Shown here: positions 27,979 through 47,156 of the stretch, in pieces
Position numbering within the stretch: the first letter of the stretch is position 1
Layout: each line of letters opens with the position of its first letter
Source of the DNA: Rhodospirillaceae bacterium
GTDB taxonomy: Bacteria > Pseudomonadota > Alphaproteobacteria > Rhodospirillales > Casp-alpha2
Direction: 5' to 3'
DNA length: 64,000 nucleotides
Assembly: GCA_002686255.1 (NCBI GenBank)
Contig: NZAZ01000108.1
Coordinates: 3,336-67,335, forward strand
Notes under the pieces: generated by a model
Database searches by the model: none
The model's input: only the letters and a program-made list of their open reading frames with translations
What the model was told of the DNA's origin: nothing
Translations under genes and position numbers: made by a program

Positions 27979-27981
27979 GCC

Positions 27982-28500: not shown

Positions 28501-28839
28501 CCATGGCGCCGTTTGCCGTTGGCGGACCCGGGTTCAGGGGCCGGTTTTTAGGGGCGTCCGGCGCCGGGCCAAACTGGTAACAGGCTGACCACCGATTCCA
28601 TGACCTAGACGGTCGATTCCCCGGCCACTGAGGGCCACGGGGTGACGGCAGCCACAGCCAGGACAATCGCCGCCGCGAAGGCTGGAGTCCTTCGGTTGAT
28701 GGTCCGGATACGGCGTTGCATAACTAATTAAGACTCCCAGTGTACGGGTTAGGATTAACCGCTTTTCGGCCAAGACGCAAAGCCGGTCGCGGTATATATG
28801 TATGAGGCCAAGAGTTTCGAATAAAAGGTAATCCCAAAA

Positions 28840-29853
28840 GTGTCCGTTTCCGATTTCCCCCGCGTTTCCCTGGCCCATACGCCGACCCCGTTGGAGACCA
28901 TGCCCAATCTGACCCGTTTGTTGGGCGGGCCCGATTTGCTGGTCAAGCGCGACGACTGTACCGGCCTGGCCATGGGCGGCAACAAGGCGCGTCAGTTGGA
29001 ATTCTATTTCGGCGAAGCGGTGGCGCAAAAGGCGGACACAGTCATCATCACCGGCGCCATCCAGTCCAACTTCGCGCGCCAGACGGCCGCCGCCGCGGCC
29101 AAGCTTGGTATGGCTTGTCATATCCAGCTTGAACACCGGGTGCCGACGATGGCGCCCGAATACGAAGCGTCCGGCAACGTTCTGCTGGACCGGCTGTTGG
29201 GCGCGGCCATCCATTACTTCCCCGAAGGCGAGGACGAAACCGCCGCCGACAAGGCGTTGGACAATATCGCCGATCAGGTCCGTGCCGAAGGGGGCAACCC
29301 TTATGTCATTCACCTGTTGGCGGATTATCCGCCCCTGGGCGCGCTGGGCTACGTGGTCGGAGCCGGAGAATTCCTCGATCAGGCCGCCGAACGGGGCCTT
29401 GCCATCGATGCCGTGGTGCTGCCGTCCGGCAGCGCCGCCACCCATGCCGGCGTTCTGGTGGGATTGAAAAGCCGCAACAGCGATATCGAGGTTACAGGCG
29501 TTTGCGTCAGGCGAAACAAGGATCAGCAGTTCGAAAGGGTGTTTCGCCAAGCCACCGTCGCCGCCGAGATGGTCGGCTGCCCGGACGCCGTTTCCAAGGA
29601 CGACATCCACGTTACCGACGACTACTTGGGTCCCGGCTACGGCCAATCGACGCCCGAGATGCTGGAGGCGATGACACTGGCGGCCCGCGAAGAAGGGCTG
29701 ATTCTGGACCCGGTCTATACCGGCAAATCCATGGCCGGCCTGATCGGGTTGGTGCGTTCGGGCCGTTTCAAGTCCGGGCAGACCGTTCTTTACCTGCATA
29801 CGGGCGGCACCCCGGCGGTTTTCGGGTATAGCTCGATGTTCGGGGACTTATGA
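28840..29853 (+). CDS. PLP-dependent D-cysteine desulfhydrase / ACC deaminase family protein
   Basis: 337 aa, GTG start. TPLE...LLVKRDDCTGLAMGGNKARQLEF (PLP Lys) and LHTGGTPA C-terminal motif. Confidence 0.85.
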   Translation: MSVSDFPRVSLAHTPTPLETMPNLTRLLGGPDLLVKRDDCTGLAMGGNKARQLEFYFGEAVAQKADTVIITGAIQSNFARQTAAAAAKLGMACHIQLEHRVPTMAPEYEASGNVLLDRLLGAAIHYFPEGEDETAADKALDNIADQVRAEGGNPYVIHLLADYPPLGALGYVVGAGEFLDQAAERGLAIDAVVLPSGSAATHAGVLVGLKSRNSDIEVTGVCVRRNKDQQFERVFRQATVAAEMVGCPDAVSKDDIHVTDDYLGPGYGQSTPEMLEAMTLAAREEGLILDPVYTGKSMAGLIGLVRSGRFKSGQTVLYLHTGGTPAVFGYSSMFGDL

Positions 29854-30209
29854 AATTTCCGCGCACCATCCGGCTCGACATTCACGACGCCAACGCCTTT
29901 CCGCTGGCCGCCGAACCCGAGGAATGGGCGGTGACGGGAACCTTCGCCTTCGCCGACGCCGATCCGGCGGCGATGACGGGCAAGGAACAGTTGGCGTTTA
30001 AAAACGGCTGGCTCGGCACCGAAAACTTCGGCCGGTCGACCTTCGTTCAGGTATCGGTGATCCCGGACGAACAATTCAAAGCCGTGGTGCGAAACCTGGC
30101 GGCCCATCTGCACGAAAACTACGGCGCGCCGGACATGTTGGCCGCCGTCGAAGCGGCCCGCGGCGCGCAGAAAACAGGGGAATTTTCGCGCAAACGGCTC
30201 ATGGTTTAG
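29850..30209 (+). CDS. Left (N-terminal) copy of a split conserved hypothetical gene, with a truncated, replaced C-terminus
   Basis: 119 aa, ATGA-coupled to the PLP gene. Residues ~24-105 are near-identical to ORF 43719-44162. The sequence diverges after AAVEAARG and stops 14 codons later. Confidence 0.6.
   Translation: MKFPRTIRLDIHDANAFPLAAEPEEWAVTGTFAFADADPAAMTGKEQLAFKNGWLGTENFGRSTFVQVSVIPDEQFKAVVRNLAAHLHENYGAPDMLAAVEAARGAQKTGEFSRKRLMV
29919..30165. repeat. 247-bp direct repeat, left copy (partner 43752-43998)
   Basis: Aligned by eye base for base. About 15 mismatches, no indels. Confidence 0.9.
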
Positions 30210-30243
30210 CCGCCACGTCACCGAATTCGTTTCAACTAGCGTT

Positions 30244-30474
30244 CTATATTTTGCCCTGGATGCGTTCGAGCCGATCGAGAAGATTCCGGTTCGGGCAGAC
30301 GAAATAACGGCTCTCCACGTCCTCGTCGCAGGTGCAATACATCTCGCACATGCGGCACTTCGCCATCGCATCTTCCATCATCTCCGGCATCGACTCGAAA
30401 CTGCGCTCGATATCGAGATTTAAATACCCGATCATTTTCTCCAGCGGATAGGGCATCGCCAATTGCGCAACCAT
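30244..30474 (-). CDS. Small Cys-rich hypothetical protein
   Basis: 76 aa with CRMCEMYCTCDED...FVCP. Last gene of the minus-strand block. Confidence 0.5.
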   Translation of the reverse strand: MVAQLAMPYPLEKMIGYLNLDIERSFESMPEMMEDAMAKCRMCEMYCTCDEDVESRYFVCPNRNLLDRLERIQGKI

Positions 30475-30571
30475 CGACTCTCCCCTTCATAAACACGCGC
30501 ATTATACCACAATTTTTTTATGGTTATAATCTTGGACCATTGTGGCGTATAGGGCCCCCTTCGCCCCGGGG

Positions 30572-32836
30572 CTAGTTAAAGGATTCGGCCCGCGCCATCA
30601 ACTCGTCGAGGTTCGGCTCATCCGGGTTTATCGGCTTGCCCGGATGGATGATGGCGACCTGGCAGATCTCGGCCGCTTCTACCAACTGGCGAAAGGTTCC
30701 CGCGTCCGGGTCGGCGATATACGCCTGGTCGTTGTCGTCGTAGACGAACATCTTGTTGTTGATGTCGGTACACTCGTTGCAGGTCGTGCAACGGGGCGTT
30801 TCGATGTAGGGCTCGCCCGCGGGTATTTCCGGCGCCTCTGCGATTTCCGGCATCGTCTCTTCCTTCGCCTTCGCTTCTGCCGGGACCGGTGGGGCCGGCT
30901 CTTCGGTCTCCAGTTGGGGACGGACCGTCAATGCCGCCAGTTCCCGCTCCTTCTCCTCAACCCAAATTTCTTTCTCCTTTGCCAGGAGTTTCGTGGCGTG
31001 GGAGTTGTTGATCCCGCCCAGTTCCTGCAGGCTCCGCCACATCTCACGGCACCGGCGCGTCGCCTGGACCAGCTTGTCCTCAACGATGACCCTGTGAAGA
31101 ACGTTGTTGTCGTCGACCATCCGGATGTAGGGGATTCTTTCCGCCTGGGCCCCGGTTTCCAGGTCCAGAAACGCATTCACCGGAACCATGCCGTCGTGCC
31201 ACTTTGACCTGGGAACTGTTGCAAGGCTTTCCGCGAAGCGGCCGTCGGCGGCCACGAAATCGACGAAGGTAAAGGCGATATCCTCCGATATCTTCTGAAG
31301 GTCCTCGTCTTCGTAGCAAAAGCGATGGATCGGCCAATCGGCTTCTGCTTGGGGATTACCGGTGACCGAGAACCGCGATTCCCAATCGCTTCCCAGGGCA
31401 GGGTCGTACACGAAAGCCGGAAAAGCTCGCGACTCCATCGCCGCCGCCGCCCTGAGATACGGCGACACGTCGGGCGCGTTCTTGGCTGAACCCAAGGCGT
31501 TCCCCGCCAAGCCTGAAAATATGCTGAACAGCGCCGGCCCGTTCTCAGCCAGTCCATTCAGGATCGACTCTCTCAGCCGATAGAGACCGCAGCCGCCCGA
31601 TTGCAGGACGAAGGCGTTGTTGAAGCCAAGCGCCGTCGCTGCAAGCTGCGTACCCCTGATGCCAAAGGAGAATTGCCCAGACGAAATCGACAATTTCTCG
31701 AGAATGTCGTCGTTCTGGACCAGAACCTTGATCGGCAGGCCCGACGAAAGGACCTTCATGAGCGTCGCCTTTTCCGCTATGTCATCGAGGCGGTCCCCGA
31801 GGCAGACCAGATATGACGGGAACAATGCCAAATCGTCCGGCTCCAGAAATCTTTCATCAAACCGGCGGAAGAACGGGTCGTGGGCCGACTCCCTGTATCG
31901 GTTCTCGATCTCCAACTCGGCGATGGATATGGCTTTGATAAGCTCGATCATCTCGGGCAGCCGTTCCTGGAAAGCCTCCAACGCACGCGTACAGCGGTCG
32001 AAAACGAAGATGTGGGGGTCTTTACGCCGCCTCTTTTTCCCGTGTCGTCTTGCCGGCGCAAAAAACCGCTGCGATTCGAGAACTGACAAAGCGGAGCGGA
32101 TTCTTCGCTGCCGTTTTTCCGGCATCGCGCCGTCTTCGATGGCCGTTCCGAGGAGTCCCGACATCACCTCGAAATCGAAAGCGGCCTCATAAGCGGAACC
32201 GACCGAGCGTTTGAGGGCTTCGGCACTCCGCCCCCCCCCGGACTTCATGGAGTCGGTCTTCAGGATGTCCGAAAGCTTCAGGGTTAACCCGTTGACCTGA
32301 TCGAGGAATTTGCGCGCCTTGGCTTTCTGGACCACGGTCCAGGCATGGGTCAGGACCTTGGCCGGCGTTTCCTTGTCACAGTCGATGACTTCACCGTCGA
32401 ACCGGAGGATGCCGCGGGCGCGGCTCAGGCTTTCGCTGAGCGATTTCCGCCCCTCGTCATCGGTTCTGGAAAGCAGGTTGGTCTCCGCCAAGTCCCAAAG
32501 CTGCAAAAGGGTTCCCCGGCGGCCGCGGGAGGCGAGAGAACGGATTTCCCCTTCGAGCCCAAGTATATGCTTGCGGACGCGCTCGCCCTTGATTCCCGGG
32601 GGAGCTATTTCCTTGAGGGCGCCGTCGATGATATCCGAAAACGAGCGCACAAAAGAACTGCCGCCATCATCGTCGACCAACACCAAAGGATAATCGTAAC
32701 GCAGCGTCGATAAATCCCGGTAGGCGCTGAACAGGGCCGGGCGAAGGCCCAGTTGTCTGACGCCGGCCATATTCTTGCCGGGCCTTTTCCCGGTCAGATG
32801 AAAAGTGGAAAAATGTGAAGGGGTTTCATTCATCAC
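30572..32836 (-). CDS. Large uncharacterised protein with a C-terminal single-cluster ferredoxin-like domain
   Basis: 754 aa. The last ~75 aa read PYIETPRCTTCNECTDINNKMFVYDDNDQAYIADPDAGTFRQLVEAAEICQVAIIHPG (CxxCxxC...C). The first ~620 aa have no family I recognise. 46 nt downstream of korB. Confidence 0.7.
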   Translation of the reverse strand: MMNETPSHFSTFHLTGKRPGKNMAGVRQLGLRPALFSAYRDLSTLRYDYPLVLVDDDGGSSFVRSFSDIIDGALKEIAPPGIKGERVRKHILGLEGEIRSLASRGRRGTLLQLWDLAETNLLSRTDDEGRKSLSESLSRARGILRFDGEVIDCDKETPAKVLTHAWTVVQKAKARKFLDQVNGLTLKLSDILKTDSMKSGGGRSAEALKRSVGSAYEAAFDFEVMSGLLGTAIEDGAMPEKRQRRIRSALSVLESQRFFAPARRHGKKRRRKDPHIFVFDRCTRALEAFQERLPEMIELIKAISIAELEIENRYRESAHDPFFRRFDERFLEPDDLALFPSYLVCLGDRLDDIAEKATLMKVLSSGLPIKVLVQNDDILEKLSISSGQFSFGIRGTQLAATALGFNNAFVLQSGGCGLYRLRESILNGLAENGPALFSIFSGLAGNALGSAKNAPDVSPYLRAAAAMESRAFPAFVYDPALGSDWESRFSVTGNPQAEADWPIHRFCYEDEDLQKISEDIAFTFVDFVAADGRFAESLATVPRSKWHDGMVPVNAFLDLETGAQAERIPYIRMVDDNNVLHRVIVEDKLVQATRRCREMWRSLQELGGINNSHATKLLAKEKEIWVEEKERELAALTVRPQLETEEPAPPVPAEAKAKEETMPEIAEAPEIPAGEPYIETPRCTTCNECTDINNKMFVYDDNDQAYIADPDAGTFRQLVEAAEICQVAIIHPGKPINPDEPNLDELMARAESFN

Positions 32837-32882
32837 ATGACCCTGTCCGCATTCTGTGGATCAATCTAAGTGCTCTTTCGCC

Positions 32883-33857
32883 TCACCCCGCGGGGTGGAT
32901 CGTGAACTTGTCAAATTCCTTTTCCAGGACGGCCTTGACCACGTCCGGGGTATACAACCGGTCGGGTTTTCTGAGGTCCTCGTAACAGGACATATCGGGA
33001 TTCCGATAAAGAACGCCGACGGGCATCGGGTCGTAGGTCGACGCGATCTCCCGGGCCCGGTTTCTGTTGGAGGGGTCGTGCTCCTCTTGATTGCGGTAGA
33101 TGCTCGAAAGATTCGAACCGATCTTAACGCCGTCCTGGTGATGGAGCAGTAGCATCCGGTCAGGATCCTGCACCCATTCGTCGAACCGGTGATCCAGATA
33201 TTCAGGACACCTTTGAAGCACCCGCACGAAAGAGAAGCCCTTGTGATGAAACGCCTCGGCGATGATGTCGTGCAGCATCTCCGGAATCCAATCCACCGCC
33301 TGAGCGACGAACGAAGCGTTCCGGATACCCAGGGTGACGCTCACTGGGTTAATGGGCTCCAGGTGCGCGCCTCGGGGCGTCGTGTTGCTCTTCAGGCCCT
33401 GTGGCGACGTGGGAGACGCCTGATTCTTGGTCAGACCGTAGATCCCGTTGTCGTGCATCAAGACGGTCATGTTCATGTTGTAGCGGATGGCGTGAATCCA
33501 GTGCGCGGTGCCGATGGAGCAGCAATCGCCGTCGCCGGTGATTACGAAGACGTGGAGATCGGGCCGCCGCAACTTGATCCCCTCGGCGACCGGCAAGGCT
33601 CGGCCGTGAAGGCCGTGAAACCCGTAGGTATGCATGTAGTGCGGGAGCCTGCTGGAGCAGCCGATCCCCGACACGAACACGGTCTTTTCGGGTGGAAGAT
33701 GCTCGTCGCGGCACAGCCGCTGGATGGAAGCGAGGATGGCATTGTCGCCGCACCCGGTGCACCAGCGGGGCACGCCGCCCTTGTAGTCATCGAGGGTGTA
33801 TTCCTCGTCGATCAACTTCAACAGGCATTGGGTGGTCGAAGCGGTCATTGTCCTCAT
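32883..33857 (-). CDS. korB: 2-oxoglutarate (2-oxoacid):ferredoxin oxidoreductase beta subunit, TPP-binding
   Basis: 324 aa. WCTGCGD Cys motif and the GDGDCCSIG TPP/Mg motif. Overlaps the korA stop by 4 nt. Confidence 0.85.
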   Translation of the reverse strand: MRTMTASTTQCLLKLIDEEYTLDDYKGGVPRWCTGCGDNAILASIQRLCRDEHLPPEKTVFVSGIGCSSRLPHYMHTYGFHGLHGRALPVAEGIKLRRPDLHVFVITGDGDCCSIGTAHWIHAIRYNMNMTVLMHDNGIYGLTKNQASPTSPQGLKSNTTPRGAHLEPINPVSVTLGIRNASFVAQAVDWIPEMLHDIIAEAFHHKGFSFVRVLQRCPEYLDHRFDEWVQDPDRMLLLHHQDGVKIGSNLSSIYRNQEEHDPSNRNRAREIASTYDPMPVGVLYRNPDMSCYEDLRKPDRLYTPDVVKAVLEKEFDKFTIHPAG

Positions 33858-35824
33858 CCTTTCGATTGCAGTCTGTCGCGGATAGCGCGGACGATGTTTC
33901 CCGGTTTGATCGGCTCTCCCTTGACCTCGGACCAGCAGTCGACATCGACGAGATACCGCGCCCGCAAGAGCAACGCCAGTTCCGAATAACGGCGATTGTC
34001 CTCGTCAATGATCTCGCGATCGACGCTGTCGGACCAGCTGCCTTCCACCGTCAGGACCTGCACGAACCGCTTCAGGACGTCGCCGATTCCCGGCGCCATG
34101 GGCTGAAGGAACCGGAGATGCAGGGAGGACACCTTTTGACCATCGGCGCGCAGGCGTCCGACGGATTCCTCAATGGCCCCCTTGGTGCCGCCCCAGCCGA
34201 CGACCAACAAGTCGCCTTCGTCGTCACCGAATACCGGCGGCGTCTTTAGTGACTTTTGCAGGGCCACCAGCTTGAGGCTGCGATTCCTGATTCCTTCCTC
34301 ATTGCTGTCGGAGTCGTAAGCAACGCGGCTCATCCGGTCATGGGCTAGCCCGGTCAGGCAGTGCATGCCGTTCGGTTGCCCGGGGATGAACCGGCGGGCG
34401 AGGCCGGTCCGGGCATCCCAATCATAGGGTTTTGCGCCCTTGGGGACCGCGCTCTGGTCAACCGGGGGCGCCAACCACTCCTCGGCGACATGCGGCCGTG
34501 GGAAAGGTTGTTGGGACGAAGCGAGACTGGCATCCGAGAGCACGACGACAACCGTGTTGAAGGTTTCGGCGATCTTGCGCGCCGTGATCATCGAGTAGAA
34601 GCAATCCTCGATATCCGACGCCGCCATGACGACCTTCGGGTTGTCCCCGTGACCACCGAAGCAGGCGAACAGTAGATCCCCTTGCTCCACTTTCGTGGGC
34701 AGGCCGGTGCTTGGACCGCCACGCTGGACGTTCACCACCACCAACGGGATTTCCCCCATCACCGCGAGGCCGATGGTTTCTTGTTTCAGGGCGAACCCGG
34801 GACCGGACGTGATTGTCACTGCGCACTTGCCCGCATAGGACGCCCCGATGGCGAAGGCGCAGGCGGCGATCTCGTCCTCCGCCTGATGCACCATGCCTCC
34901 AACGGAATTGAAGACGTCGCTCAGGTAGTGCGATGCCGACGTCGCCGGGGTGATCGGATACATGGCGCAGACCTCCATGCCCGACGCCATCACGCCGAGG
35001 CCGAGGGCGATATTGCCGTTGACGACGATTTGGGGTTGGCGCAGTTTGGAGGGGGGAATCCTGAACTTAAACTCAAGGTTCGCCTCCGCCCATTCGTGCC
35101 CCGCCTCCAGGAGCGTGACGTTGTCCTTGATGACGCCCGCGCTTTTCTTCTTGAAGACGAAAGCGACCTGGTCCCGGGCTATTTGCAGATCGAGGCTGTA
35201 GAGGCTGCAGAGAATGCCCAGAACGAACATGTTCTTGCCGCGCCAGGGGTCGGCGACGTATTTCAGGCACTCCTGTTCCATTGGGATTTCGTGAACCTTG
35301 TACCCGTCCGCCACAAGCTTATCGACGGTTTCCGCATACGAGGCGGCGATCTCCGGGTCGTCATTGGTTCTCCATTCGCCCTCCAGGAGGATGATGCAAC
35401 CGGGCGCGAGTTCGTCGGTCCAGAAGCGGCTCAACAGAACCTGCTCGTTGAAGGCGACGATGAGGTTAGCCTCATCGCCCCAATTGGTCACGCGATGGGA
35501 TGCCAGGCGAATGCGGTTGCCGCTGGCGCCGGCGATGCTTCGCGCCGGCGGCTGAATTTCGGCGGGTATGATCTCGGCGGTCCAAATGCCGTTTCCCATC
35601 CTGGCCGCGATGGACCCGAACGCCTGGCCACATCGTTGCGCCCCCTCGCCGGAGTCGCTGATGATCTCGATGATGTGCTCGTTCAGCGTGACGGTCGGTT
35701 TGGCGCCCGATGAGGGCCGGCCCCGTCGCTTCGCGTCCGACACCGAACCCTTCTTCGCCTTCTTGGTTGACGAACGGCGTACCGGCTTTTGGCGGGGGTC
35801 TTTTTTAAGGGCCTGTGTGCTCAT
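33854..35824 (-). CDS. korA: 2-oxoglutarate (2-oxoacid):ferredoxin oxidoreductase alpha subunit (fused gamma-alpha type)
   Basis: 656 aa. Lys/Arg-rich ~45-aa N-extension, a gamma-like domain (SGEGAQRCGQ) and an alpha domain (MYPITPATS). Confidence 0.85.
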   Translation of the reverse strand: MSTQALKKDPRQKPVRRSSTKKAKKGSVSDAKRRGRPSSGAKPTVTLNEHIIEIISDSGEGAQRCGQAFGSIAARMGNGIWTAEIIPAEIQPPARSIAGASGNRIRLASHRVTNWGDEANLIVAFNEQVLLSRFWTDELAPGCIILLEGEWRTNDDPEIAASYAETVDKLVADGYKVHEIPMEQECLKYVADPWRGKNMFVLGILCSLYSLDLQIARDQVAFVFKKKSAGVIKDNVTLLEAGHEWAEANLEFKFRIPPSKLRQPQIVVNGNIALGLGVMASGMEVCAMYPITPATSASHYLSDVFNSVGGMVHQAEDEIAACAFAIGASYAGKCAVTITSGPGFALKQETIGLAVMGEIPLVVVNVQRGGPSTGLPTKVEQGDLLFACFGGHGDNPKVVMAASDIEDCFYSMITARKIAETFNTVVVVLSDASLASSQQPFPRPHVAEEWLAPPVDQSAVPKGAKPYDWDARTGLARRFIPGQPNGMHCLTGLAHDRMSRVAYDSDSNEEGIRNRSLKLVALQKSLKTPPVFGDDEGDLLVVGWGGTKGAIEESVGRLRADGQKVSSLHLRFLQPMAPGIGDVLKRFVQVLTVEGSWSDSVDREIIDEDNRRYSELALLLRARYLVDVDCWSEVKGEPIKPGNIVRAIRDRLQSKG

Positions 35825-35846
35825 TCCGGGGTGTGGTCCTTATGGT

Positions 35847-37358
35847 CTATGCGACACGGACGCGGGAGAAATTCTTCTCCTGGGCGTCAATTCCAAAAAG
35901 CGTGTCCACGCCACCCTCTTGTTTGGGGAGATAGACGGCGTCTGTGTCGCGGATGCCGAGGTAGGCCTTCATTCTCCGCGCTGCCTTGCGGCCGGCGCCC
36001 ATCGCCAGGATCACGGTGGCGCCGCCGGTGACGATGTCGCCGCCGGCGTAGACTCCGGCCATGGAGGTGGCGAGCGTGTCGTCGGTCTCGATGTAGCCCC
36101 TTTCGTTGAGCTTCAGCTTCGAGGTCTGGCCGATAATCGGGTTGGCGTTGGTGCCGATGGCGTAGATGACCATATCGGCCTCGAACTCATACTCGCTGCC
36201 ATCGATGGGGACCGGGCGCCGCCGGCCCGAGTCATCGGGTTCGCCCAGCTCCATGCGGATGCAGCGCATGCCGCGGACGTTGTTGTCGTCGTCGCCAAAA
36301 ATTTCGACCGGCGCCGTCAGCCAGTGGAACTCGATTCCCTCCTCCTCGGCGTGGTCGATCTCCTCGGCCCGGGCCGGGCTTTCGGTCTTGGTGCGCCGGT
36401 AGACGCAGTGGACGTTCTCGGCCCCCAACCGCAGGCACACCCGCATGGCATCCATGGCCGTGTTGCCGGCACCGATCACGGCGACCCTTTGGCCCAGATG
36501 CAAGGGGGTGTCGTAGTCGGGGAATTCGCCGGCGTGCATGAGATTGCAGCGGGTCAGGAGCTCATTCGCCGAAAGCACCCCGTTGAGCGATTCACCGGGT
36601 ATGCCCATGAAGCTCGGGTAACCGGCGCCGCTGCCGACGAAGACCGCGTCGAAGCCCATCTCATCGAGCATCTGTTCAAGAGTGAATAGGCGCCCGACCA
36701 GTGTATTGCATTTTATTTTGACGCCCAGCCTGGTCAGGGCATCGACCTCGGCATCGATGACCTCGTTGGGGAGGCGAAATTCGGGGATGCCGTACCTGAG
36801 CACGCCGCCCGGCTTGTGGAAGGCCTCGTAGACGGTGACGTCGCATCCCGCCTTGGCCATGTCCGCCGCGCAGGCGATTCCGGCGGGCCCCGACCCGACG
36901 ACACCGATCCGAAAGCCGTTGGGCTCGATATAGGGGACGTTGCTCCAACCTTCCTTGATCGCCAGGTCGCCGAGCCATCGCTCGAGCCTGCCGATGGCCA
37001 CCGGCTCCAGCGTGTCGCCGACGGGGCAGACGCCCTCGCACTGGTCCTCCTGAGGACAGACACGGCCGCAGATGGCCGGCAACAGGTTGGAATCGGTAAG
37101 AACATCGTACGCGCCCCGGTAATCCTTCTCGATGATCCTGGCGATGAAGCCCGGGATGTCGATGCCGACGGGACAGCCGGGAATGCAGGCGGCCTCGGGG
37201 CACATGAGGCAGCGTTCGCACTCGTTGAGCGCGTCCTCCAGCCCGTAGCCGAGCGCGACCTCGGCGAAGTTCTTCACCCGCGCCTCGGGATTCTGCAGCG
37301 GGATCGGCGTTCGCTCCTGGGGAATGGTGCGTATGGTCTTCTTCTTCTTTTTCTCCAT
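35847..37358 (-). CDS. GltD/NfnB/SudA-like NAD(P)H-dependent FAD, 2x[4Fe-4S] oxidoreductase
   Basis: Start moved to ATG 37358 (MEKKKKKTIRTIPQ...). CLMCPEAACIPGCP and CGRVCPQEDQCEGVC clusters, GSGPAGIACA and GAGNTAMD dinucleotide folds. Its ATG overlaps the upstream TGA. Confidence 0.8.
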   Translation of the reverse strand: MEKKKKKTIRTIPQERTPIPLQNPEARVKNFAEVALGYGLEDALNECERCLMCPEAACIPGCPVGIDIPGFIARIIEKDYRGAYDVLTDSNLLPAICGRVCPQEDQCEGVCPVGDTLEPVAIGRLERWLGDLAIKEGWSNVPYIEPNGFRIGVVGSGPAGIACAADMAKAGCDVTVYEAFHKPGGVLRYGIPEFRLPNEVIDAEVDALTRLGVKIKCNTLVGRLFTLEQMLDEMGFDAVFVGSGAGYPSFMGIPGESLNGVLSANELLTRCNLMHAGEFPDYDTPLHLGQRVAVIGAGNTAMDAMRVCLRLGAENVHCVYRRTKTESPARAEEIDHAEEEGIEFHWLTAPVEIFGDDDNNVRGMRCIRMELGEPDDSGRRRPVPIDGSEYEFEADMVIYAIGTNANPIIGQTSKLKLNERGYIETDDTLATSMAGVYAGGDIVTGGATVILAMGAGRKAARRMKAYLGIRDTDAVYLPKQEGGVDTLFGIDAQEKNFSRVRVA

Positions 37359-38305
37359 CACGACCTCGATCCGATCGACGGCAAGCTTTCGTCCTTGAGG
37401 CGACACGCCTCGGACCACCGCTCCATAGCCCTCTTTTCTTCTCCCACGAATCGTTTCAGTCGGTTCATGAGATCGTCGAAGTCGACTTGGTGGCCGTCGA
37501 AGTCGGGTCCGTCGACGCAGGCGAACCTGATGCTCCCGCCGATCTTGACCCGGCAGCCGCCGCACATGCCGGTGCCGTCGACCATGATCGGGTTCAGGCT
37601 GACGGTGGTTTTGATGCCGGAAGGACGCGTCGTTTCCGCGCACGCCTTCATCATGATCGGCGGACCGATGGCGACAACCTCGTCGATATCGGCGTGCTTT
37701 TCCATGGCCAACTTGATGCCATCGGTAACCAGCCCCTTGACGCCAACAGAGCCGTCATCGCTGCAAATAATGAATTCGTCGCAGTATTTCCTGAATTTGT
37801 CTTCCCAAAAGACCAATTCCTTATTTCGGAACCCGATGACGCCGATCACATAGGCGCCGCGCTCCTTGAAGGCACGTGCCTGGGGGAAGACCGGCGCCAC
37901 GCCCAATCCGCCACCGACGCAGACCGCCTTTCCGATATCATCGATGTGGCTCGGCTTGCCCATAGGGCCGACGACGCTGAAGAGCTCGGTCCCGGTGTAG
38001 CAGTTCCGCTGCATCTGCTTTGTCGTCTTGCCGACCGCCTGCACGACCAGCGTCACCGTTCCCTTTTCGCGGTCGAAATCGGCGATCGTCAACGGGATGC
38101 GCTCCCCGTGTTCCTCTGGAATGACGATGACGAACTGGCCCGGCTTGGCCGCCTTGGCCATCATCGGGTGACGGAATTCGAGCAAGAAAGTGACGTCCGA
38201 GAAATCCTCTCGCCTCACGATCTCAAAGACGGACTCTTCGTTTACCGCGAGCGCCGGCTTGGAGATTTTGTGCAAGCCTCTCCGGGTTTTCTGCTTGCTG
38301 CCCAT
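37358..38305 (-). CDS. NfnA/SudB-like FAD/NAD-binding [2Fe-2S] subunit (ferredoxin-NADP reductase-like)
   Basis: 315 aa. PGQFVIV...RIPLTIADF FAD barrel, GGGLGVAP NAD fold, C-terminal MCGGCRV...FACVDGP Cys cluster. Confidence 0.8.
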   Translation of the reverse strand: MGSKQKTRRGLHKISKPALAVNEESVFEIVRREDFSDVTFLLEFRHPMMAKAAKPGQFVIVIPEEHGERIPLTIADFDREKGTVTLVVQAVGKTTKQMQRNCYTGTELFSVVGPMGKPSHIDDIGKAVCVGGGLGVAPVFPQARAFKERGAYVIGVIGFRNKELVFWEDKFRKYCDEFIICSDDGSVGVKGLVTDGIKLAMEKHADIDEVVAIGPPIMMKACAETTRPSGIKTTVSLNPIMVDGTGMCGGCRVKIGGSIRFACVDGPDFDGHQVDFDDLMNRLKRFVGEEKRAMERWSEACRLKDESLPSIGSRS

Positions 38306-38483
38306 TTAGATAAGGTCCGGTTCTGTCAACATATTGAAAGTTAATGATATTTTAGGGCCGTCGGCAAGGCTTTAACTTGTGTCAAGTCCGCATTGCAGGC
38401 GAGGAGCCACGGGAATGCCCTCTCAAGGTCCGATCACTTGAGAATGGGTTCGACGAAAAACTTGATCGGCGGCGAAAGGGGCG

Positions 38484-38804
38484 TTACCCGGCTCCCGGTC
38501 TCGGGGCGCAGGGGGCGGTTCTCTTGTGTTCTTCCGACGAATACGGCCCGACGGCGAATTCACATTCGACCGTCACGGCACTTGCGGTCCCGACGACGGA
38601 CTCGCCGGCACGGTGAGAGGGCCCTAAACCGGGGTGATCGAGGTCCCAATGGGTACGGCGGACGATGAAATTCGTGCACCCTTCCTGACCGGGATGCGAA
38701 ATCGTCACGCAGTCGCCGACTTGTGGAACGCCGGGCAATTCGAACATTAGGGTATGATCGGGCTCTTCACCTTCATCAGGGAAGAGCAGGAACTGAACCT
38801 TCAT
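38484..38804 (-). CDS. Hypothetical protein
   Basis: 106-aa ORF between the two oxidoreductase modules. No recognisable family. Confidence 0.4.
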   Translation of the reverse strand: MKVQFLLFPDEGEEPDHTLMFELPGVPQVGDCVTISHPGQEGCTNFIVRRTHWDLDHPGLGPSHRAGESVVGTASAVTVECEFAVGPYSSEEHKRTAPCAPRPGAG

Positions 38805-38834
38805 GGCTCTTTACTCCTATTCGAGGTGTCGCGC

Positions 38835-40466
38835 TCAAATGGTCTCGTGCACCATTTCAATGGCCCCGCACGGGCATTCGGCGGCGCATAGTCCGCATCC
38901 CTTGCAGAAGTCGTAATTGAACTCGAAGCGGTTCCCCGCCCCCAGTTTGATGACCGCATTGTCGGGGCAAACCCCGTAACAGTTGTCGCATTCGAAGCAA
39001 TTGCCGCACGACAGGCACCGCCGGGCCTCGAAAAGCGCGTTGGTCTCGTCGAGGCCGCCATGAATTTCATCGAAACTAGTCTGCCGCCGGATAAAGTCGA
39101 GGGTCGGCTGGGCGGTCTTATCGGCATCGGTGTAATACCAGGTGTTTATCCTTTCGAATTCCGCCAGCGCATGCTTCGGCGGCGGGGCGTAGCGCTCGCC
39201 GCGCAAATAGGCGTCGATATGGCGCGCCGCCTTCTTGCCGTGGCCGACGGCCACCGTGACGGTGCGTTCGGCCGGCACCATGTCGCCGCCGGCGAACAGA
39301 CCGGGATGGCCCGTCATCATGGTTTCATCGACCTCGACCACCCCGTCGTCGGCAATCTTCACCCCGGACACGGCCTCCAGGAAGCGGGTGTCCACATCCT
39401 GGCCGAGGGCCAGGATCAGCGTATCCGCCTCGAGGGTATCGAACTCACCGGTCGGCTGCGGGCGGCCGTGGGCGTCGATCTCCATCTTTTCGACGGTAAA
39501 CATTGTCTCCTCGATCGCCTTGATGGTCCTGAGCCAGTGAATGAGGACGCCCTCGTCTTCCGCTTCGGTGGCTTCGAAGTCGTGGGCCGGCATTTCCTTC
39601 CTGGAGCGCCGGTAGACGATCATCGCCTCGTCGACGCCGAGGCGCTTGGCCGTGCGCGCCACGTCCATGGCCGTGTTGCCACCGCCGTAGACAATCACCC
39701 GGCGGCCGAGCTGCGGCGGTTCGGCGCCGGTCTCCATGTCCTTGAGCACACTGACCGCATCCAGGATCCGGCCCGCCGCGTAGGCCGGAATGTCGATACG
39801 CCTGGCCAGGTGCGCGCCGACGGCAACGAACACGGCATCGAACTTTTCCTTCTCGAAGGCCTCTTCGATATCCTCGACCTTGGTGTCGAGTTCTAGCGTC
39901 ACGCCCAAGTCGAGGATGCGCTGGATCTCGTAATCGAGCACGTCACGCGGCAGCCGGTACTTGGGGATGCCGAAACGCATCATGCCACCGGCCATCGGTC
40001 CGGCCTCGCGGATGGTAAGGGTGTGGCCAAGCCGGGTCAGGTGATAGGCCGCCGAAAGGCCGCTCGGCCCGGCGCCGACGACGAGAACCTTCTTGCCGCT
40101 GGGTTCGGCGTCTATAATCGGCTTCCAGCCGTTTTCCCAGGCGGTGCGGCCGAGGAAACGCTCGATGGCGTGGATGCCGACCGCCTCATCCAATTTGCCC
40201 CGGTTACACGCGTCTTCGCAGGGGTGGTAGCAAACCCGGCCCATGATCCCGGGCATCGGGTTGTCCTGCATCAGCACCTGCCAAGCGCCCTCATAATCGC
40301 CCTCTTCGGCCAAATATAGCCACGCTTGGATGTTTTCCCCGGCCGGGCAGGCGTGATTGCAGGGCGGCAGGTAATCGATATATTCCGGCCGTTCGGTCCG
40401 CCACGATCCGGTCAGGTTGGCGAGGCTGGTGCCGATATCGAGGGTGACGGCAAAGGGCTTCTGCAT
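38835..40466 (-). CDS. GltD-like NAD(P)H flavoprotein fused to a C-terminal 2x[4Fe-4S] (PorD/delta-like) ferredoxin domain
   Basis: Start moved to ATG 40466 (MQKPFAVTLDIG...). Cys clusters CNHACPAGE and CYHPCEDAC, GAGPSGLSAAY and GGGNTAMD folds. C-terminus CLSCGNCFECDNCYGVCP...CKGCGLCAAECPCG. 10 nt after porB. Confidence 0.8.
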   Translation of the reverse strand: MQKPFAVTLDIGTSLANLTGSWRTERPEYIDYLPPCNHACPAGENIQAWLYLAEEGDYEGAWQVLMQDNPMPGIMGRVCYHPCEDACNRGKLDEAVGIHAIERFLGRTAWENGWKPIIDAEPSGKKVLVVGAGPSGLSAAYHLTRLGHTLTIREAGPMAGGMMRFGIPKYRLPRDVLDYEIQRILDLGVTLELDTKVEDIEEAFEKEKFDAVFVAVGAHLARRIDIPAYAAGRILDAVSVLKDMETGAEPPQLGRRVIVYGGGNTAMDVARTAKRLGVDEAMIVYRRSRKEMPAHDFEATEAEDEGVLIHWLRTIKAIEETMFTVEKMEIDAHGRPQPTGEFDTLEADTLILALGQDVDTRFLEAVSGVKIADDGVVEVDETMMTGHPGLFAGGDMVPAERTVTVAVGHGKKAARHIDAYLRGERYAPPPKHALAEFERINTWYYTDADKTAQPTLDFIRRQTSFDEIHGGLDETNALFEARRCLSCGNCFECDNCYGVCPDNAVIKLGAGNRFEFNYDFCKGCGLCAAECPCGAIEMVHETI

Positions 40467-40476
40467 GGTCCGTGCC

Positions 40477-41463
40477 TCAGCCGAGCAAGTCAAACTTTTC
40501 GATGTTGCGGTCGGCGATCTGCTGGATCGCGGCCAGGGCGTCCTTGTCCGGCGGCGAGCGGAACAGGTGGGCGAAGCGCCGCTGCGGCCTGAGATATTCC
40601 TTGACCGGCATTCTGCGGCGGATCGGGGTGACGTCGGTGATCTCGCCGTCTTCGGCCTCGAATAACGGAAACAGTCCCGTCTCCACCGCCAGTCGCGCCA
40701 GCTTGATGGTGTCGCAGGGATCGGACCCCCAGCCCAACGGGCAGGGGACGTGGACGTGGATATAGCGCGCCCCGTCAATGCCCATGGCCTTCGTGACCTT
40801 GGCCTCCAGATCGTGCAGGTCGGCGACACTGGCGGTGGCGACGTAGGGAATGCCGTGGGCCATGGCGATCAGCGGCACGTTCTTGCCCTGCCCGAAGACG
40901 TTGCCCGGCGCATCGCCGACCACCGGCGTCGTCGATGTCCGGGCCGCCGGCGGGGTCGAGCCGGAGCGCTGAACGCCCGTGTTCATGTAGGCTTCGTTGT
41001 CGTAGCAGACGTAGAGCACGTCGTCGTTGCGCTCGAACATACCCGAAAGGCACCCGAAGCCGATGTCCACCGTGCCGCCGTCGCCGCCCTGGGCCAGGAC
41101 CTTGATGTCGTCCTGCCCCTTGGCCCGAAGCGCCGCCCGAACGCCCGTGGCCACGGCCGGCGCGTTTCCGAACAATGAATGCAGCCACGGCACCTGCCAC
41201 GAAGATTCGGGGTACGGCGTCGAAAACACTTCCAGGCAACCTGTCGCATTGACCGCGACCAGGCGGTCGTCCACGGCGCGCATGGTCGCATCGACCACAT
41301 ATCGCGCCCCCAGCGCTTCGCCGCATCCCTGACAGGCGCGATGGCCCGAGGTCAGCGAGTTGCTGCGGTCGAGGGTCGCCTGGACGGTGCGGTTTTCCGC
41401 ATCGAGCAGGCGGTTGCCGACGGTGAGAGTTCCGGTCTGATAGAATTTGACACGCTGTGTCAT
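40477..41463 (-). CDS. porB: Pyruvate (2-oxoacid):ferredoxin oxidoreductase beta subunit
   Basis: 328 aa. CQGCGE Cys motif and the QGGDGGTVDIGF TPP motif. Confidence 0.85.
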   Translation of the reverse strand: MTQRVKFYQTGTLTVGNRLLDAENRTVQATLDRSNSLTSGHRACQGCGEALGARYVVDATMRAVDDRLVAVNATGCLEVFSTPYPESSWQVPWLHSLFGNAPAVATGVRAALRAKGQDDIKVLAQGGDGGTVDIGFGCLSGMFERNDDVLYVCYDNEAYMNTGVQRSGSTPPAARTSTTPVVGDAPGNVFGQGKNVPLIAMAHGIPYVATASVADLHDLEAKVTKAMGIDGARYIHVHVPCPLGWGSDPCDTIKLARLAVETGLFPLFEAEDGEITDVTPIRRRMPVKEYLRPQRRFAHLFRSPPDKDALAAIQQIADRNIEKFDLLG

Positions 41464-41476
41464 CGTTTCTCCCCCC

Positions 41477-41743
41477 AGAGCGGGTCAGGATAGATAGGAA
41501 CCATTTGACCGGGAATATTTTGTCCCGTGGCAAGGCACCCTTCGAAATGCGATGCTTGCGCATCGGATGAGGAGGGTAACGACGCCACGGGGCAAAAGAA
41601 CCCGGCCGAAGGTGGGGCATATCGGCTCCTCGGGTGCGTTGCAACGCTTGCCCGATGCTTTAGCATCGCGCCGCGCGCCACGCCTTCCCGAATGAACCGA
41701 TCTGCTCCCATCAAATTGCTTTCTATCTATCCTGAACCGCTCT
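41477..41743. mobile_element. 267-bp MITE-like non-autonomous element inserted at the porA/porB junction
   Basis: 24-bp terminal inverted repeats: AGAGCGGGTCAGGATAGATAGGAA (41477-41500) against the reverse complement of 41720-41743, AGAGCGGTTCAGGATAGATAGAAA (22/24 identical). Internal hairpins are present. No credible ORF. Confidence 0.65.
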
Positions 41744-42997
41744 AAACCGGCTTGCCGCCGACAAGGCCCATCTCGCGAAGGATGTTCTCCGCAATCGGGC
41801 CTGAACGGCGTTTTTCTTTGCCCCGCGCCAACTCGCGGTCGACGACCTCCCAGTCGAGGTCGAGGAAATGCGGATCGTCGATTTCGTCCGCCGCCGCCTT
41901 GCCGAACGCCTGACGCAACGACGCCTGGGTGATGGCGCGGCCTCCAAGGCCGGCGATGATCGTGTAGATCGGGGTGCTGAGGCCACGCAGGGCCATGCGA
42001 ACGCTGCCGACCACGATTCCGCCGAGACCGTCGGCTAAACATTTCTCGACCACGATGACCCGTTTCGCTTTTTCAAGCTGGGCGCGAAGGGCAAGCATGG
42101 GGAAAGGACAGAACGAAACGACCGTGACGGCGCCGATGGAAACGCCGTCGTCGCGCATCTCGTCGACCGCTTCCTTGATGGTGCCCATGACCGATCCCAG
42201 TCCCACGACCACGGTCTCGGCGTCTTCGGAGCGGTAGAATTTTATCAGCCCTCCCGTTTCACGCCCGAATTGGCGCCCATACTCGGCGGAAAGATCGGGG
42301 ATGACATCGATCGCCCGAAGGTGCTTGTGATGGGCCAGGTAACGGACCTCTGCAAAGGCTTCCGGCCCGACCATGGCGCCGATGGTGACCGGTTCCGACG
42401 GGTCCAGCATCTGCACCGGCTCGAAGGTTGGCAGGTAGGCATCGACCTGCTTGCGGTCAGGCATATCAATTCGTTCGTAGGCGTGGGTGAGAATGAACCC
42501 ATCCACGCAAACCATCACCGGCACGCTCAACTCCTCGGCCAGCCGGAACGCCTGGATGTGCAGGTCGACTGCGTCCTGGTTAGTTTCGGCGTAGAGTTGA
42601 ATCCAGCCGGCATCCCTGAGCGCCATGCTGTCGGAATGATCGTTCCAGATATTGATCGGCGCCCCGATGGCCCGGTTGCCGATGGTCATGACGATCGGCA
42701 GGCCGAGCCCGGCGGCGTTATAGACCGCCTCGGTCATGAACAGCAGTCCCTGGCTGCTGGTGGCGGTGTAGGCGCGGGCCCCCCGGCCGCCGACGCGCCG
42801 ATGGCGACGCTCAGCGCGGCGAATTCCGATTCGACGTTGATGTATTGACAATCCCCCACCTCGCCCAACCGGACGAATTCGCTGAGCCTTTCGACGATGT
42901 GCGTTTGCGGCGTGATCGGGTAGGCGCAGATCACTTCCGGGCGGCAGAGCGTAATCGCCTCGGCAACCGCATGTGACCCTTCCATTTGTTTAAGCAT
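41742..42997 (-). pseudogene. porA: Pyruvate:ferredoxin oxidoreductase alpha subunit, frameshifted in a homopolymer
   Basis: N-part (MLKQMEGSHAVAEAI...ESEFAALSVAIGASAAG, start 42997) and C-part (ARAYTATSSQGLLFM... to 41742) are in different frames. The switch is at the C6/G6 run 42779-42784. The stop codon is supplied by the MITE end. Confidence 0.75.
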
Positions 42998-43019
42998 CGT
43001 CGCCTCCTGGCATCGGTGG

Positions 43020-43580
43020 TCAATTTGTTCTGATCGAATCGTAGGCTTTGGCCGCGGCTCGGGCATTGTCGGCGCCGAGCTTACCGGGGAATTTCTGGCG
43101 GATGGCCGCTTCAACGGACTCGAGCTTCAGCCGGTGCGTCACTGCGGCGAAGGCGCCCAGGAGGGCAGCGTTGGGAACCGGCCGGCCGATATATTTAAGC
43201 GCCCATTTGGTTGCCGCGACAGTGCAGATATGGTGCGGTGGGAACTGGCTCACATAATCGCCGAGGCCCAAGTCCCGGTAGCTCTTGGTCGTGTTGATGA
43301 GAAGATAACCCCGGGTGTCGAGGCCGTTTAACAGGTCTACTTGATGCAGCAACGTCGAATCCTGGACGATCAAGGCATCGGGCATCATGACAGGTTCGCG
43401 CAGGCGAATTTCCTTGTCGTCAATGCGGCAAAACGCCACCACCGGCGCCCCCATCCGTTCCGAGCCGAAGCTGGGAAATGCTTGCGCGTAGTCGCCCTCG
43501 AGGAACGCCGAAATCGACAACATCTCGGCGGCCGATACCGCGCCTTGCCCACCTCTGCCATGTATGCGGATCTGGAAAAT
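43020..43580 (-). CDS. porG: Pyruvate:ferredoxin oxidoreductase gamma subunit, probable AUU start
   Basis: The track ORF (ATG 43523) lacks the conserved IRIHGRGGQGAVSAAE, which is encoded in-frame upstream. The only plausible start is ATT 43580-43578, 5 nt after GGAGG. No ATG/GTG/TTG lies in the open frame. Confidence 0.65.
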   Translation of the reverse strand: MFQIRIHGRGGQGAVSAAEMLSISAFLEGDYAQAFPSFGSERMGAPVVAFCRIDDKEIRLREPVMMPDALIVQDSTLLHQVDLLNGLDTRGYLLINTTKSYRDLGLGDYVSQFPPHHICTVAATKWALKYIGRPVPNAALLGAFAAVTHRLKLESVEAAIRQKFPGKLGADNARAAAKAYDSIRTN

Positions 43581-43718
43581 TCCTGCCTCCGAACTCCTGC
43601 GTAGCCCAGGGGCGGGCCAATCTATGCCCCTCCCAGGCTCAGATTGACGTCATCAATCCTCCGTATCGGCCCCGGCGGGCAGATCCGGCACTCAAGGGTA
43701 ATCTACCGTTCCCGCACC

Positions 43719-44162
43719 ATGGCTTCCTTGACCTGGGTCAACGCCGAGCATGAGGAATGGGCGGTGACGGGAACCTTCACCTTCGCCGACGCCGATCCGG
43801 CGGCGATGACGGGCAAGGGACAGTTGACGTTTAAAAACGGCTGGCTCGGCACCGAAAGCTTCGGCCGGTCGACCTTCGTTCAGGTATCGGTAATCCCGGA
43901 CCAACGATTCGAAGCCGTGGTGCGAAACCTGGCGGCCCAACTTCACCAACGATACGGCGCGCCGGACATGTTGGCCGCCGTCGAAGCGGCCCGCGGCGAA
44001 GCCGAATACGCGGCCGGCCTGTGCGACCATCCCGCCGGCACCTTGCTTGCCATCGAACGGGAATTCACTGAAGACGGCGTGGCCGAAAGGATCCGCGTCA
44101 TCCCGAAAACCGACGCGGGGACGCACGCCCGGATTTGGTCGGTGGAAGAGGATGAGGGATAA
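43719..44162 (+). CDS. Right (C-terminal) copy of the split conserved hypothetical gene, with a replaced N-terminus
   Basis: ATG 43719. Shares the EEWAVTGTF...AAVEAARG core with 29850-30209, then continues EAEYAAGLCDHPAGTLLAIEREF...WSVEEDEG. Confidence 0.6.
   Translation: MASLTWVNAEHEEWAVTGTFTFADADPAAMTGKGQLTFKNGWLGTESFGRSTFVQVSVIPDQRFEAVVRNLAAQLHQRYGAPDMLAAVEAARGEAEYAAGLCDHPAGTLLAIEREFTEDGVAERIRVIPKTDAGTHARIWSVEEDEG
43752..43998. repeat. 247-bp direct repeat, right copy (partner 29919-30165)
   Basis: See the left copy. Confidence 0.9.
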
Positions 44163-44176
44163 AGCCCGAAGGCAAA

Positions 44177-44253
44177 TGGCGCGCCCGAGAGGATTCGAAC
44201 CTCTGACCTCAGGATTAGGAATCCTGCGCTCTATCCGACTGAGCTACGGGCGC
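44177..44253 (-). tRNA. tRNA-Arg (anticodon CCT)
   Basis: The reverse complement folds as a cloverleaf: acceptor GCGCCCG/CGGGCGC, D-arm AGCTCAGTCGGATAGAGC, anticodon stem-loop CAGGA-TTCCTAA-TCCTG, T-arm GAGGTTCGAATCCTC, encoded CCA. Confidence 0.9.
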
Positions 44254-44308
44254 CCGAGGGTGAATCTGCATCCATAGCCCCCTTTAGCGCAAGGATCATC
44301 AAGATGCG

Positions 44309-44866
44309 TTAACGGCTGAAGTGCTTGCCGAGCGGAATGGAGTAATTGACCAGAATCGTTTCCGTCCCCGGGTTGGTATCGACGATGGACGCGTTCGATG
44401 AATGCGAAATGGCGACACCCAGCCGCGCCCGGTTGTCGAAGCGGTAGGCGAATTCGATCTGGGAGCGGAACTCCAGCGCATGGCCAAGGTCCAGGTCGTT
44501 GGTCTTGCCGCGCCAATAGGTCGGCGCGAAGCTGGGGGTGACGACGAATCGGTTGCCGAAATAGACGTCCAGCAGGATGCCGGCGCCGATGAACGACATG
44601 CCGTTGGTCACCCCGGCCACGGTCAGGAAAGGCTTGAAATGCCAGATCTTGAAGTCGGAACGGTAATCGACCCGGAATTCGACGCCTTGGTCCTTTCGCC
44701 GGTTGAAGTCAAAGGCGCCGGCGCCGATGGTCAGGAAAGCGGGGTCGTCGGCATGGGCCGGCCCGGGCGACAAGCCGACTGCCGGAAACACGAACAACAA
44801 AGCGAGAAAGGCCCGTTTCAACACGCTTCTGCCGCCCCCTTCAATGACTTCCCAAAAAACACCCAA
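44309..44866 (-). CDS. Acyloxyacyl hydrolase / lipid A deacylase (PagL-like) outer-membrane protein
   Basis: 185 aa. Signal-like LLFVFPAVGLSPGPAHA, beta-barrel-like alternating pattern, C-terminal ISHSSNA (His-Ser) motif. The true start may be an internal GTG near 44824. Confidence 0.6.
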   Translation of the reverse strand: MGVFWEVIEGGGRSVLKRAFLALLFVFPAVGLSPGPAHADDPAFLTIGAGAFDFNRRKDQGVEFRVDYRSDFKIWHFKPFLTVAGVTNGMSFIGAGILLDVYFGNRFVVTPSFAPTYWRGKTNDLDLGHALEFRSQIEFAYRFDNRARLGVAISHSSNASIVDTNPGTETILVNYSIPLGKHFSR

Positions 44867-44932
44867 ACCTTCCGCATCTTAGGGAAGTTGCCTCCGGATT
44901 CAAGGAATTACGCCCCAAGGTGGGTTGAACGG

Positions 44933-45901: not shown

Positions 45902-45923
45902 GGCGGGCGGCCCCAAAATCCGG

Positions 45924-47134: not shown

Positions 47135-47156
47135 CCGATTTCCTTTCGCAAGGGGT

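Follow-up and report, generated by a model that had tools for sequence, protein, structure and literature searches.

Two oxidoreductase operons within a DUF6505 gene: a 13.6-kb insertion flanked by 247-bp direct repeats of its target in a marine Rhodospirillaceae lineage

The window analysed here is a stretch of 64,000 nt (NZAZ01000108.1, positions 3,336–67,335; locus tags CMM60_08960 to CMM60_09020) from a marine Rhodospirillaceae metagenome-assembled genome. In its middle, a block of 13,586 bp (30166–43751, delimited with Pfam, NCBIfam and synteny) that carries two complete operons for ferredoxin-linked 2-oxoacid oxidoreductases on the minus strand splits a small, conserved gene of the DUF6505 family, and 247 bp of that gene are found on both sides of the block. 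The arrangement is a clean natural insertion scar, a well-documented case of a known kind of event, and it calls for no new mechanism. As to its origin, we lean, with moderate confidence, towards a one-off illegitimate, microhomology-associated insertion accompanied by a staggered 247-bp duplication of the target, which would have killed DUF6505.

A repeat search over 27–47 kb of the window returned one long direct repeat, 29909–30165 and 43742–43998 (257 nt, 93%, gapless), and MAFFT concurs. Since the first 10 nt of this match are block DNA, being native upstream of por in L132, the true repeat comprises 247 bp, 29919–30165 on the left and 43752–43998 on the right (both plus strand), with 14 mismatches and no indels, so that the initial annotation, which had given exactly these coordinates with about 15 mismatches and no indels, is borne out both by the alignment and by comparison with the related locus L132. 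The two copies are now 5.7% diverged. The left copy, codons 24–105 of DUF6505, lies in an open reading frame (ORF) of 119 aa (29850–30209, plus strand) made of gene residues 1–105 followed by 14 codons from block DNA; it matches positions 1–104 of the 159 in the DUF6505 profile (PF20115, E = 6e-37), departs from the family after AAVEAARG and stops 14 codons further on. The right copy lies in an ORF of 147 aa (43719–44162, plus strand) in which 11 block-native codons (MASLTWVNAEH) are in frame with DUF6505 codons 24–159, and which matches profile positions 20–147 of 159 (E = 1e-42). In other words, the left chromosome arm ends at nt 316 of the gene and the right arm restarts at nt 70, so that 247 bp are present twice. 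Neither ORF has the full length (~159 aa) and the invariant residues of PF20115 members; both are fragments, and they are the only two DUF6505 pieces within the window.

The left ORF overlaps, by ATGA, the intact gene of an enzyme dependent on pyridoxal phosphate (PLP) of the D-cysteine desulfhydrase/CuyA-like family (28840–29853, plus strand; Pfam PALP, E = 1e-51). The product of this gene scores 420 bits against the NCBIfam CuyA model, under the cut-off of 450 bits, and its ratio of nonsynonymous to synonymous substitution rates (dN/dS) is 0.16 versus the sister lineage. On the right, tRNA-Arg(CCT) (44177–44253, minus strand; ARAGORN and Rfam) begins 14 nt past the DUF6505 stop codon and 179 bp away from the insertion; it is the sole Rfam match, and its position is kept in relatives with an empty site. 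Promoter and terminator scans at both junctions found nothing. The initial annotation had described the two ORFs in the same terms, a left ORF with a family-like N-terminus and a right ORF with an unrelated one, and had proposed that their parts rebuild one gene of about 160 aa coupled through ATGA to the PLP gene. Such an intact gene, of 159 aa, is indeed found in relatives, and the factual statements of the initial annotation were all confirmed.

The predicted empty site, consisting of the PLP gene, the intact gene and tRNA-Arg(CCT), exists in L128 and L129–131. In L128, whose flanks are 94.6% and 94.1% identical to the window, the order is PLP gene, intact 159-aa DUF6505, tRNA-Arg(CCT), PagL and abhydrolase, and the gene order of L129–131 is the same. 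In the sister lineage (L009, L023 and L024, ~92%), the PLP gene and an intact DUF6505 are separated from the tRNA by a 2–3-kb islet that contains an integrase fragment, while in the more distant L018/L025 and L030–032 an intact DUF6505 is directly followed by tRNA-Arg(CCT), the downstream genes being unchanged. The PLP gene is absent at the empty site of L018 and others; DUF6505 is coupled translationally to the CuyA-like PLP gene in close relatives and stands alone beside tRNA-Arg(CCT) in more distant ones. The 247-bp segment is single-copy in the empty sites of L128, L129, L009, L023, L024 and L018, and two DUF6505 copies were found in none of the relatives examined.

With a metagenome-assembled sequence, an assembly chimera is an a priori possibility, as is an old pair of full-length paralogues that have both been truncated, each at one end. 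A chimera is contradicted by the recurrence of both junctions: the right-hand ORF adjoining porG is identical on at least 13 contigs and the left-hand ORF adjoining the genes for the 76-aa and 754-aa proteins is identical on at least 21. The assemblies behind these contigs (Tara, JGI, ENA and NCBI) are independent, the identity is 99.9–100%, and one independent JGI contig spans both junctions. Every contig of the window's lineage that covers the site has the same, fixed arrangement. Ancient paralogues are contradicted by the single intact gene at the site in relatives, by the presence of just the two pieces in the window, and by block-native sequence that abuts both copies and leaves neither a trace of the missing ends nor space for them. 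We reject both explanations, to which we grant next to no probability. The two findings that the initial annotation had named as fatal to a split gene, namely paired full-length paralogues in relatives and a repeat that does not hold up computationally, are likewise the opposite of what was obtained.

The two joints are informative because loci related to the block can be aligned across them. At the left joint (30160–30170), DUF6505 sequence ending in ...CGCGGCG meets block-native CGCAGAAAACAGG. L133 and L046 can be followed along the window as far as CGCAGAAAACAGG (30166) and then read ...CAGCCG/CGCAG and ...GCAGCG/CCCGG, respectively; the similarity to the target there is imperfect and extends over 2–6 nt, GC(G/A)GCG. 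At the right joint (43742–43760), block-native ...GGGTCAACGCCGAGCAT meets DUF6505 GAGGAATGG between 43751 and 43752. L132 is identical to the window through ...GGGTCAACGCCGAGCAT (43751) and continues with TAATGG..., as against GAGGAATGG in the window; here the target, GCCGAACCC, and the block, GCCGAGCAT, agree at 6/9 bases. Block-native homology, as judged with L132, L133 and L046, thus reaches to within 0–2 nt of both joints, so that neither a replicon nor a recombinase could be accommodated. Even the start codon of the right ORF belongs to the block: in L132 this ATG opens a frame of 11 codons with a stop right after, and its in-frame fusion to codon 24 is due to chance. Both joints appear, from these alignments, to be illegitimate, to lie in short imperfect similarity and to fall at arbitrary, non-coding positions in the block's original setting. 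The block does end at arbitrary native points with a few bases of target similarity at the joints, as far as proxies that are 81–85% identical can tell.

Judged by its genes and their relatives, the block consists of ordinary operons and is not a mobile element. It is wholly minus-strand and tiled end to end by 11 genes, in agreement with the initial gene list. Module 1, of Kor type (30193–38305, minus strand), comprises a 76-aa ORF, the gene for a 754-aa protein, korB, korA, a GltD/NfnB-like gene and an NfnA-like gene; module 2, of Por type (38484–43580, minus strand), comprises a 106-aa ORF, a GltD–ferredoxin fusion, porB, porA and porG. The 754-aa protein has a C-terminal single-cluster ferredoxin domain, and apart from this tail proteins of its kind (~750 aa) match no Pfam or NCBIfam family; NCBIfam has no match for DUF6505 or for the 754-aa, 76-aa and 106-aa proteins. 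Just as had been noted at the outset for integrases and transposases, Pfam and NCBIfam detected no integrase, transposase, replicon, phage or mobility gene in the block, nor is there space for one, and a repeat search revealed no terminal inverted repeats at the block ends.

The same genes occur elsewhere in settings that have nothing to do with DUF6505. A survey of module 1 in GTDB covered 80 retrieved loci (L045–L124) of at least 572 matches. The order of the five-gene module (NfnA-like, GltD/NfnB-like, korA, korB and the ~750-aa protein; 30572–38305 in the window) is conserved in 80/80 of them, in unrelated contexts and in hosts as diverse as Alpha-, Beta- and Gammaproteobacteria, Acidimicrobiia, Chloroflexia and Nitrospiraceae; in the closest Rhodospirillales it is accompanied by the 76-aa ORF. 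The por module (porG, porA, porB and GltD–ferredoxin) is solitary in L125–127, and in L052 both modules are adjacent in the order seen in the window. DUF6505 was found beside block genes in none of the 80 GTDB loci, nor in L125–127, L132 or L133.

The source of the block was probably foreign DNA of another Rhodospirillales lineage. Its nearest relatives, L020, L132 and L133, share 82–85% nucleotide identity with it, and outside the window's lineage homologues of the 754-aa protein reach no more than 82% aa identity. The nearest other porG variants are 87–92% identical, and the porG of L132, read on its contig, adjoins HSP20 and not DUF6505. The flanks, on the other hand, have relatives at 94% nucleotide identity versus at most 85% for the block. 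The block therefore entered this lineage once it had separated from the ~94%-identical one. The comparison of composition between block and flanks that had been suggested initially was of little help. In tetranucleotide use no other 13.6-kb segment of the window deviates more than the block, which does so mildly, but its GC content, its GC content at third codon positions (GC3) and its codon usage are indistinguishable from those of the flanks, so that composition does little to back a foreign origin.

The history of the two copies can be read from their 14 differences. They share two derived bases (30047/43880 and 30074/43907) that are absent from every intact allele compared, which makes them each other's closest relatives. 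Several of the differences between them correspond to allelic states in circulation, represented by the intact alleles P0382/L128, P0004 and P0377. Five of the 14 form a single 10-nt patch, where HEN in the left copy corresponds to the L129/P0004 allele and HQR in the right copy to that of L128/P0382; this patch is the trace of short-tract recombination with another allele. The remaining nine are single differences, eight of them nonsynonymous and one synonymous (P = 7e-4 under omega = 0.15). Between the copies, dS is 0.046, dN 0.063 and dN/dS 1.37, as compared with dS of 0.2–0.33 (to the sister lineage) and dN/dS of 0.07–0.2 for DUF6505 orthologues. The 8:1 nonsynonymous excess and the dN/dS of 1.37 point to neutral decay rather than to divergence between functional orthologues. 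Except for the 10-nt patch, both copies therefore descend from the recipient's own allele. The initial annotation had attributed the divergence of the repeats to either a homeologous donor or an old event. The shared derived bases and the 8:1 ratio speak against the donor and favour the second alternative.

DUF6505 is dead in this lineage, with both pieces drifting next to an intact PLP gene and an intact tRNA-Arg. His occupies the position of the family-invariant Ser12 in the left copy; in the right copy, Thr is found instead of the invariant Ala49, and Thr33 and Gly46 are novel residues. Lineage-specific change amounts to 2–5.5% in the four gene pieces versus 0.2–0.5% in pagL and the abhydrolase gene. 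An AlphaFold model of DUF6505 (P0002, mf47ad0baf6e3) folds into a single alpha/beta domain (predicted local distance difference test score, pLDDT, 88; predicted template-modelling score, pTM, 0.82), in which beta-strand 1 falls within residues 2–6 and the final two strands within residues 121–140. With the first and last strands in different fragments, neither fragment holds a complete domain. It is this incompleteness, together with the replacements at invariant residues, that argues for the death of the gene. A Foldseek search of the model against the PDB gave no significant match (best E = 0.8), and a literature search returned no paper mentioning DUF6505. An apparent acceleration of the right copy (9–10 unique changes vs 2 in the left) was discarded: it fell to 7 vs 2, which is not significant, once 10 nt of block DNA had been excluded.

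How, then, was the block joined to the gene? In the origin that we favour, the block would have been cut from its native surroundings at arbitrary non-coding points and joined to DUF6505 through two illegitimate joints in short imperfect similarity patches, the two joints being offset by 247 bp. This could have come about by a replication template switch out of the target and back. Alternatively, a linear fragment may have bridged two sister chromosomes, in the manner of the interchromatid integration of Johnston et al. (PMC3784515) minus the homology. Neither a recombinase nor a replicon nor a transposase would have taken part. We favour direct insertion because it needs fewer steps than the formation of a circle followed by homologous integration.

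Several points weigh against this origin. The final sequence is identical to the product of a Campbell single crossover, and the route cannot be proven from it. The 10-nt patch indicates that some recombination with another allele touched one of the copies, as a recombinational origin predicts. Moreover, the best proxies for the donor are 82–85% identical, and it is therefore uncertain how far microhomology extends at the joints; when L132 serves as the proxy, no base is shared exactly at the right crossover. Finally, to our knowledge, target duplications of hundreds of base pairs have rarely been documented at illegitimate insertions in bacteria.

The initial annotation had proposed a Campbell-type integration, in which a non-replicating circle made of the block and a 247-bp internal fragment of DUF6505 would have recombined with the intact gene by one RecA-dependent crossover. 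Part of this proposal stands, as the gene is split, an internal segment of 247 bp is duplicated, and the structure (N-part, core, insert, core, C-part, and no further duplication of the target) is formally the expected product; the different alleles of the two copies in the 10-nt patch can also be counted in its favour. The circular donor is the part that does not. None carrying the shared segment, be it plasmid, phage or excised element, was identified among the block genes or the block relatives, and the junction 30-mer is absent from IMG/VR; a literature query on Campbell integration and genomic islands returned nothing relevant. The circle would have contained two operons and 247 bp, with no replicon, mobility or recombinase genes, and since the joints are illegitimate and the block is native to both its ends, making it would have required the same two illegitimate joints, hence extra steps. 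Odd states occur mostly in the right copy before about repeat position 200 and in the left copy after it, which fits loosely with a crossover there, but this pattern is not significant (Fisher P = 0.10) and the signal is gone when the 10-nt patch is counted as one event. In addition, the shared host-lineage derived bases and the neutral-type differences mean that the donor must have come from the same population, already with the structure. A transient circle is conceivable, and a Campbell-type crossover as the final step hence strikes us as possible, though doubtful.

A two-step history also has to be weighed. The block would first have been inserted at one joint with no duplication, and DNA of a related strain with an intact allele would later have been joined, homologously on one side and illegitimately on the other, adding the second partial copy; homology-facilitated illegitimate recombination or unequal sister exchange may be named as routes. 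Such a history would account for the different circulating patches of the copies, L129 type on the left and L128 type on the right, and would suit a locus that is recombinationally busy, with a 3-kb islet and integrase remnant in the sister lineage and other indels nearby. It requires more events, however, and the intermediate, an insertion with no duplication, was not found among the contigs recovered; nor does it sit well with the two derived bases that the copies share and the known intact alleles lack. We regard it as unlikely. The Campbell, direct-insertion and two-step routes cannot be separated by sequence comparison without the donor or an intermediate.

Whichever way they arose, the repeats would have turned the block into a RecA-dependent 'amplicon', for which looping out or amplification is possible in principle. 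It is tempting to speculate further that the block and one repeat copy form a cassette devoid of mobility genes, which would loop out through RecA as a 13.8-kb circle and re-enter naive relatives through homologous recombination with the intact DUF6505 found there. If this were true, the internal gene fragment would be a portable attachment site, whose spread would have left its mark in the 10-nt patch and in the fixation seen across samples; we hold such a cassette to be quite improbable.

Some features of the block and its surroundings merit description in their own right. The porG product has 186 aa, and not 167 aa, with an apparent ATT start at 43578–43580 placed five bases past a GGAGG ribosome-binding site, which matches the NCBI annotation. 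In most relatives the porG start codon is ATG; in L132, whose porG is the closest (92% aa), it is ATC. The window's porA has six C at 42775–42780 versus four in most other assemblies of the same lineage, which shifts the frame over the first ~70 codons and yields an ORF of 369 aa instead of 417 aa; this is either an assembly error of this metagenome-assembled genome or a strain variant. Between porB and porA lies a 267-bp element (41477–41743) with 30-bp terminal inverted repeats (87% complementary). It is single-copy in all sequences fetched and its predicted fold has an energy of -154.8 kcal/mol (z-score -9.8); the porA–porB gap of relatives measures 11–25 nt (11 nt in L125) and does not contain it. 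The element could be an insertion resembling a miniature inverted-repeat transposable element or a structured intergenic RNA in the por operon.

The islet of the sister lineage is situated between the intact DUF6505 and tRNA-Arg(CCT) (2676–5699 in L024 and 6481–8607 in L023). It encodes a GFA-like protein, a 2-oxoglutarate-oxygenase-like protein, a 2-hydroxyacid dehydrogenase and a 60-aa N-terminal integrase fragment that abuts the tRNA; tRNA-Arg(CCT) is therefore a hot spot for integration in its own right. In comparison with the sister lineage or other relatives, more lineage-specific indels affect window positions 25666–28540, 46131–47529 and 50475–52602. The sister lineage is devoid of the P460-like gene and two small ORFs, and also of the DUF4743 region. 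The methylmalonyl-CoA mutase gene is followed by a 2-kb stretch of ~49% GC with no long ORFs, and downstream of this gene L004, L002 and L018 have a different sequence. The contig L006 (ERZ27286378 k119_197512) is nearly identical in its centre to window positions 41464–47200, with four substitutions and the porA C-run indel, and is 4–5% diverged at its ends, in porB and past 47.2 kb. Either it represents a recombinant strain, or two strains that occur together were joined in the assembly. The contig had been considered as a 2%-diverged strain with the right junction, but its differences are confined to the contig ends and it is uninformative on selection acting on the right ORF.

If the origin by direct insertion holds, the locus is an example from the wild of an operon pair with no mobile-element machinery that entered a chromosome by illegitimate joining, and whose empty site, block ends and gene decay are readable in public data. 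Such events are assumed to feed the gain of operons by bacteria and have seldom been caught with both joints resolved. The insertion also dates the acquisition of pyruvate-type and 2-oxoglutarate-type oxidoreductases that depend on ferredoxin, together with their NfnAB-like partners, by one pelagic Rhodospirillaceae lineage, a gain that bears on the low-oxygen or reductive carbon metabolism of this lineage. DUF6505, a conserved family with a confident predicted fold and no PDB match, is dispensable here, having been lost in this lineage.

Comparison with known systems helps to place the insertion. The block has neither the recombinase nor the short att repeats of a site-specific island, an integrative and conjugative element or a prophage, and it has none of the transposase, end inverted repeats and short fixed duplication of a transposon or insertion sequence (IS), the only inverted-repeat element being the internal one of 267 bp. 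It resembles tRNA-targeted tyrosine-integrase islands in that tRNA-Arg(CCT) is 179 bp off, direct repeats flank the insert and the sister-lineage tRNA carries a degraded islet; it differs from them in that the repeat is 247 bp long and lies inside a coding gene, the tRNA is untouched, there is no integrase and the target is not restored. With Campbell insertion-duplication, as in suicide-plasmid mutagenesis or lambda-dgal-type circles, it shares an internal fragment present as direct repeats, two truncated copies and possible reversal by looping out, whereas vector, replicon and phage DNA are lacking here, the joints between fragment and insert are illegitimate, and the copies are those of the host lineage. 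The 'amplicons' of Rhizobium type are segments bounded by direct repeats that amplify or are deleted through RecA. Like them, the block lies between direct repeats of a few hundred base pairs and is a RecA substrate, but its repeats are 5.7% diverged and no change in copy number or deletion was found.

Illegitimate integration at microhomologies has in common with the present case the absence of a recombinase, a few imperfect bases at the joints, arbitrary non-coding cuts and a rearranged target. Double illegitimate recombination was reportedly described in Acinetobacter baylyi by Hulter and Wackernagel in 2008 (reference 41 in PMC8116780), and fork stalling and template switching (FoSTeS) and microhomology-mediated break-induced replication (MMBIR) are models based on replication template switches. 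The case described here departs from such integrations in the size of the insert, 13.6 kb and intact, in a clean 247-bp duplication where a deletion is usually reported, and in being fixed in a wild uncultured lineage. A last parallel is transformation-triggered merodiploidy by interchromatid integration, in which a donor fragment pairing with offset sister chromatids generates a tandem duplication bordering the donor DNA (Johnston et al. 2013, PMC3784515). There, pairing is homologous, through IS861 repeats, and the duplications span 100–900 kb, whereas here the duplication measures 247 bp and the joints are illegitimate.

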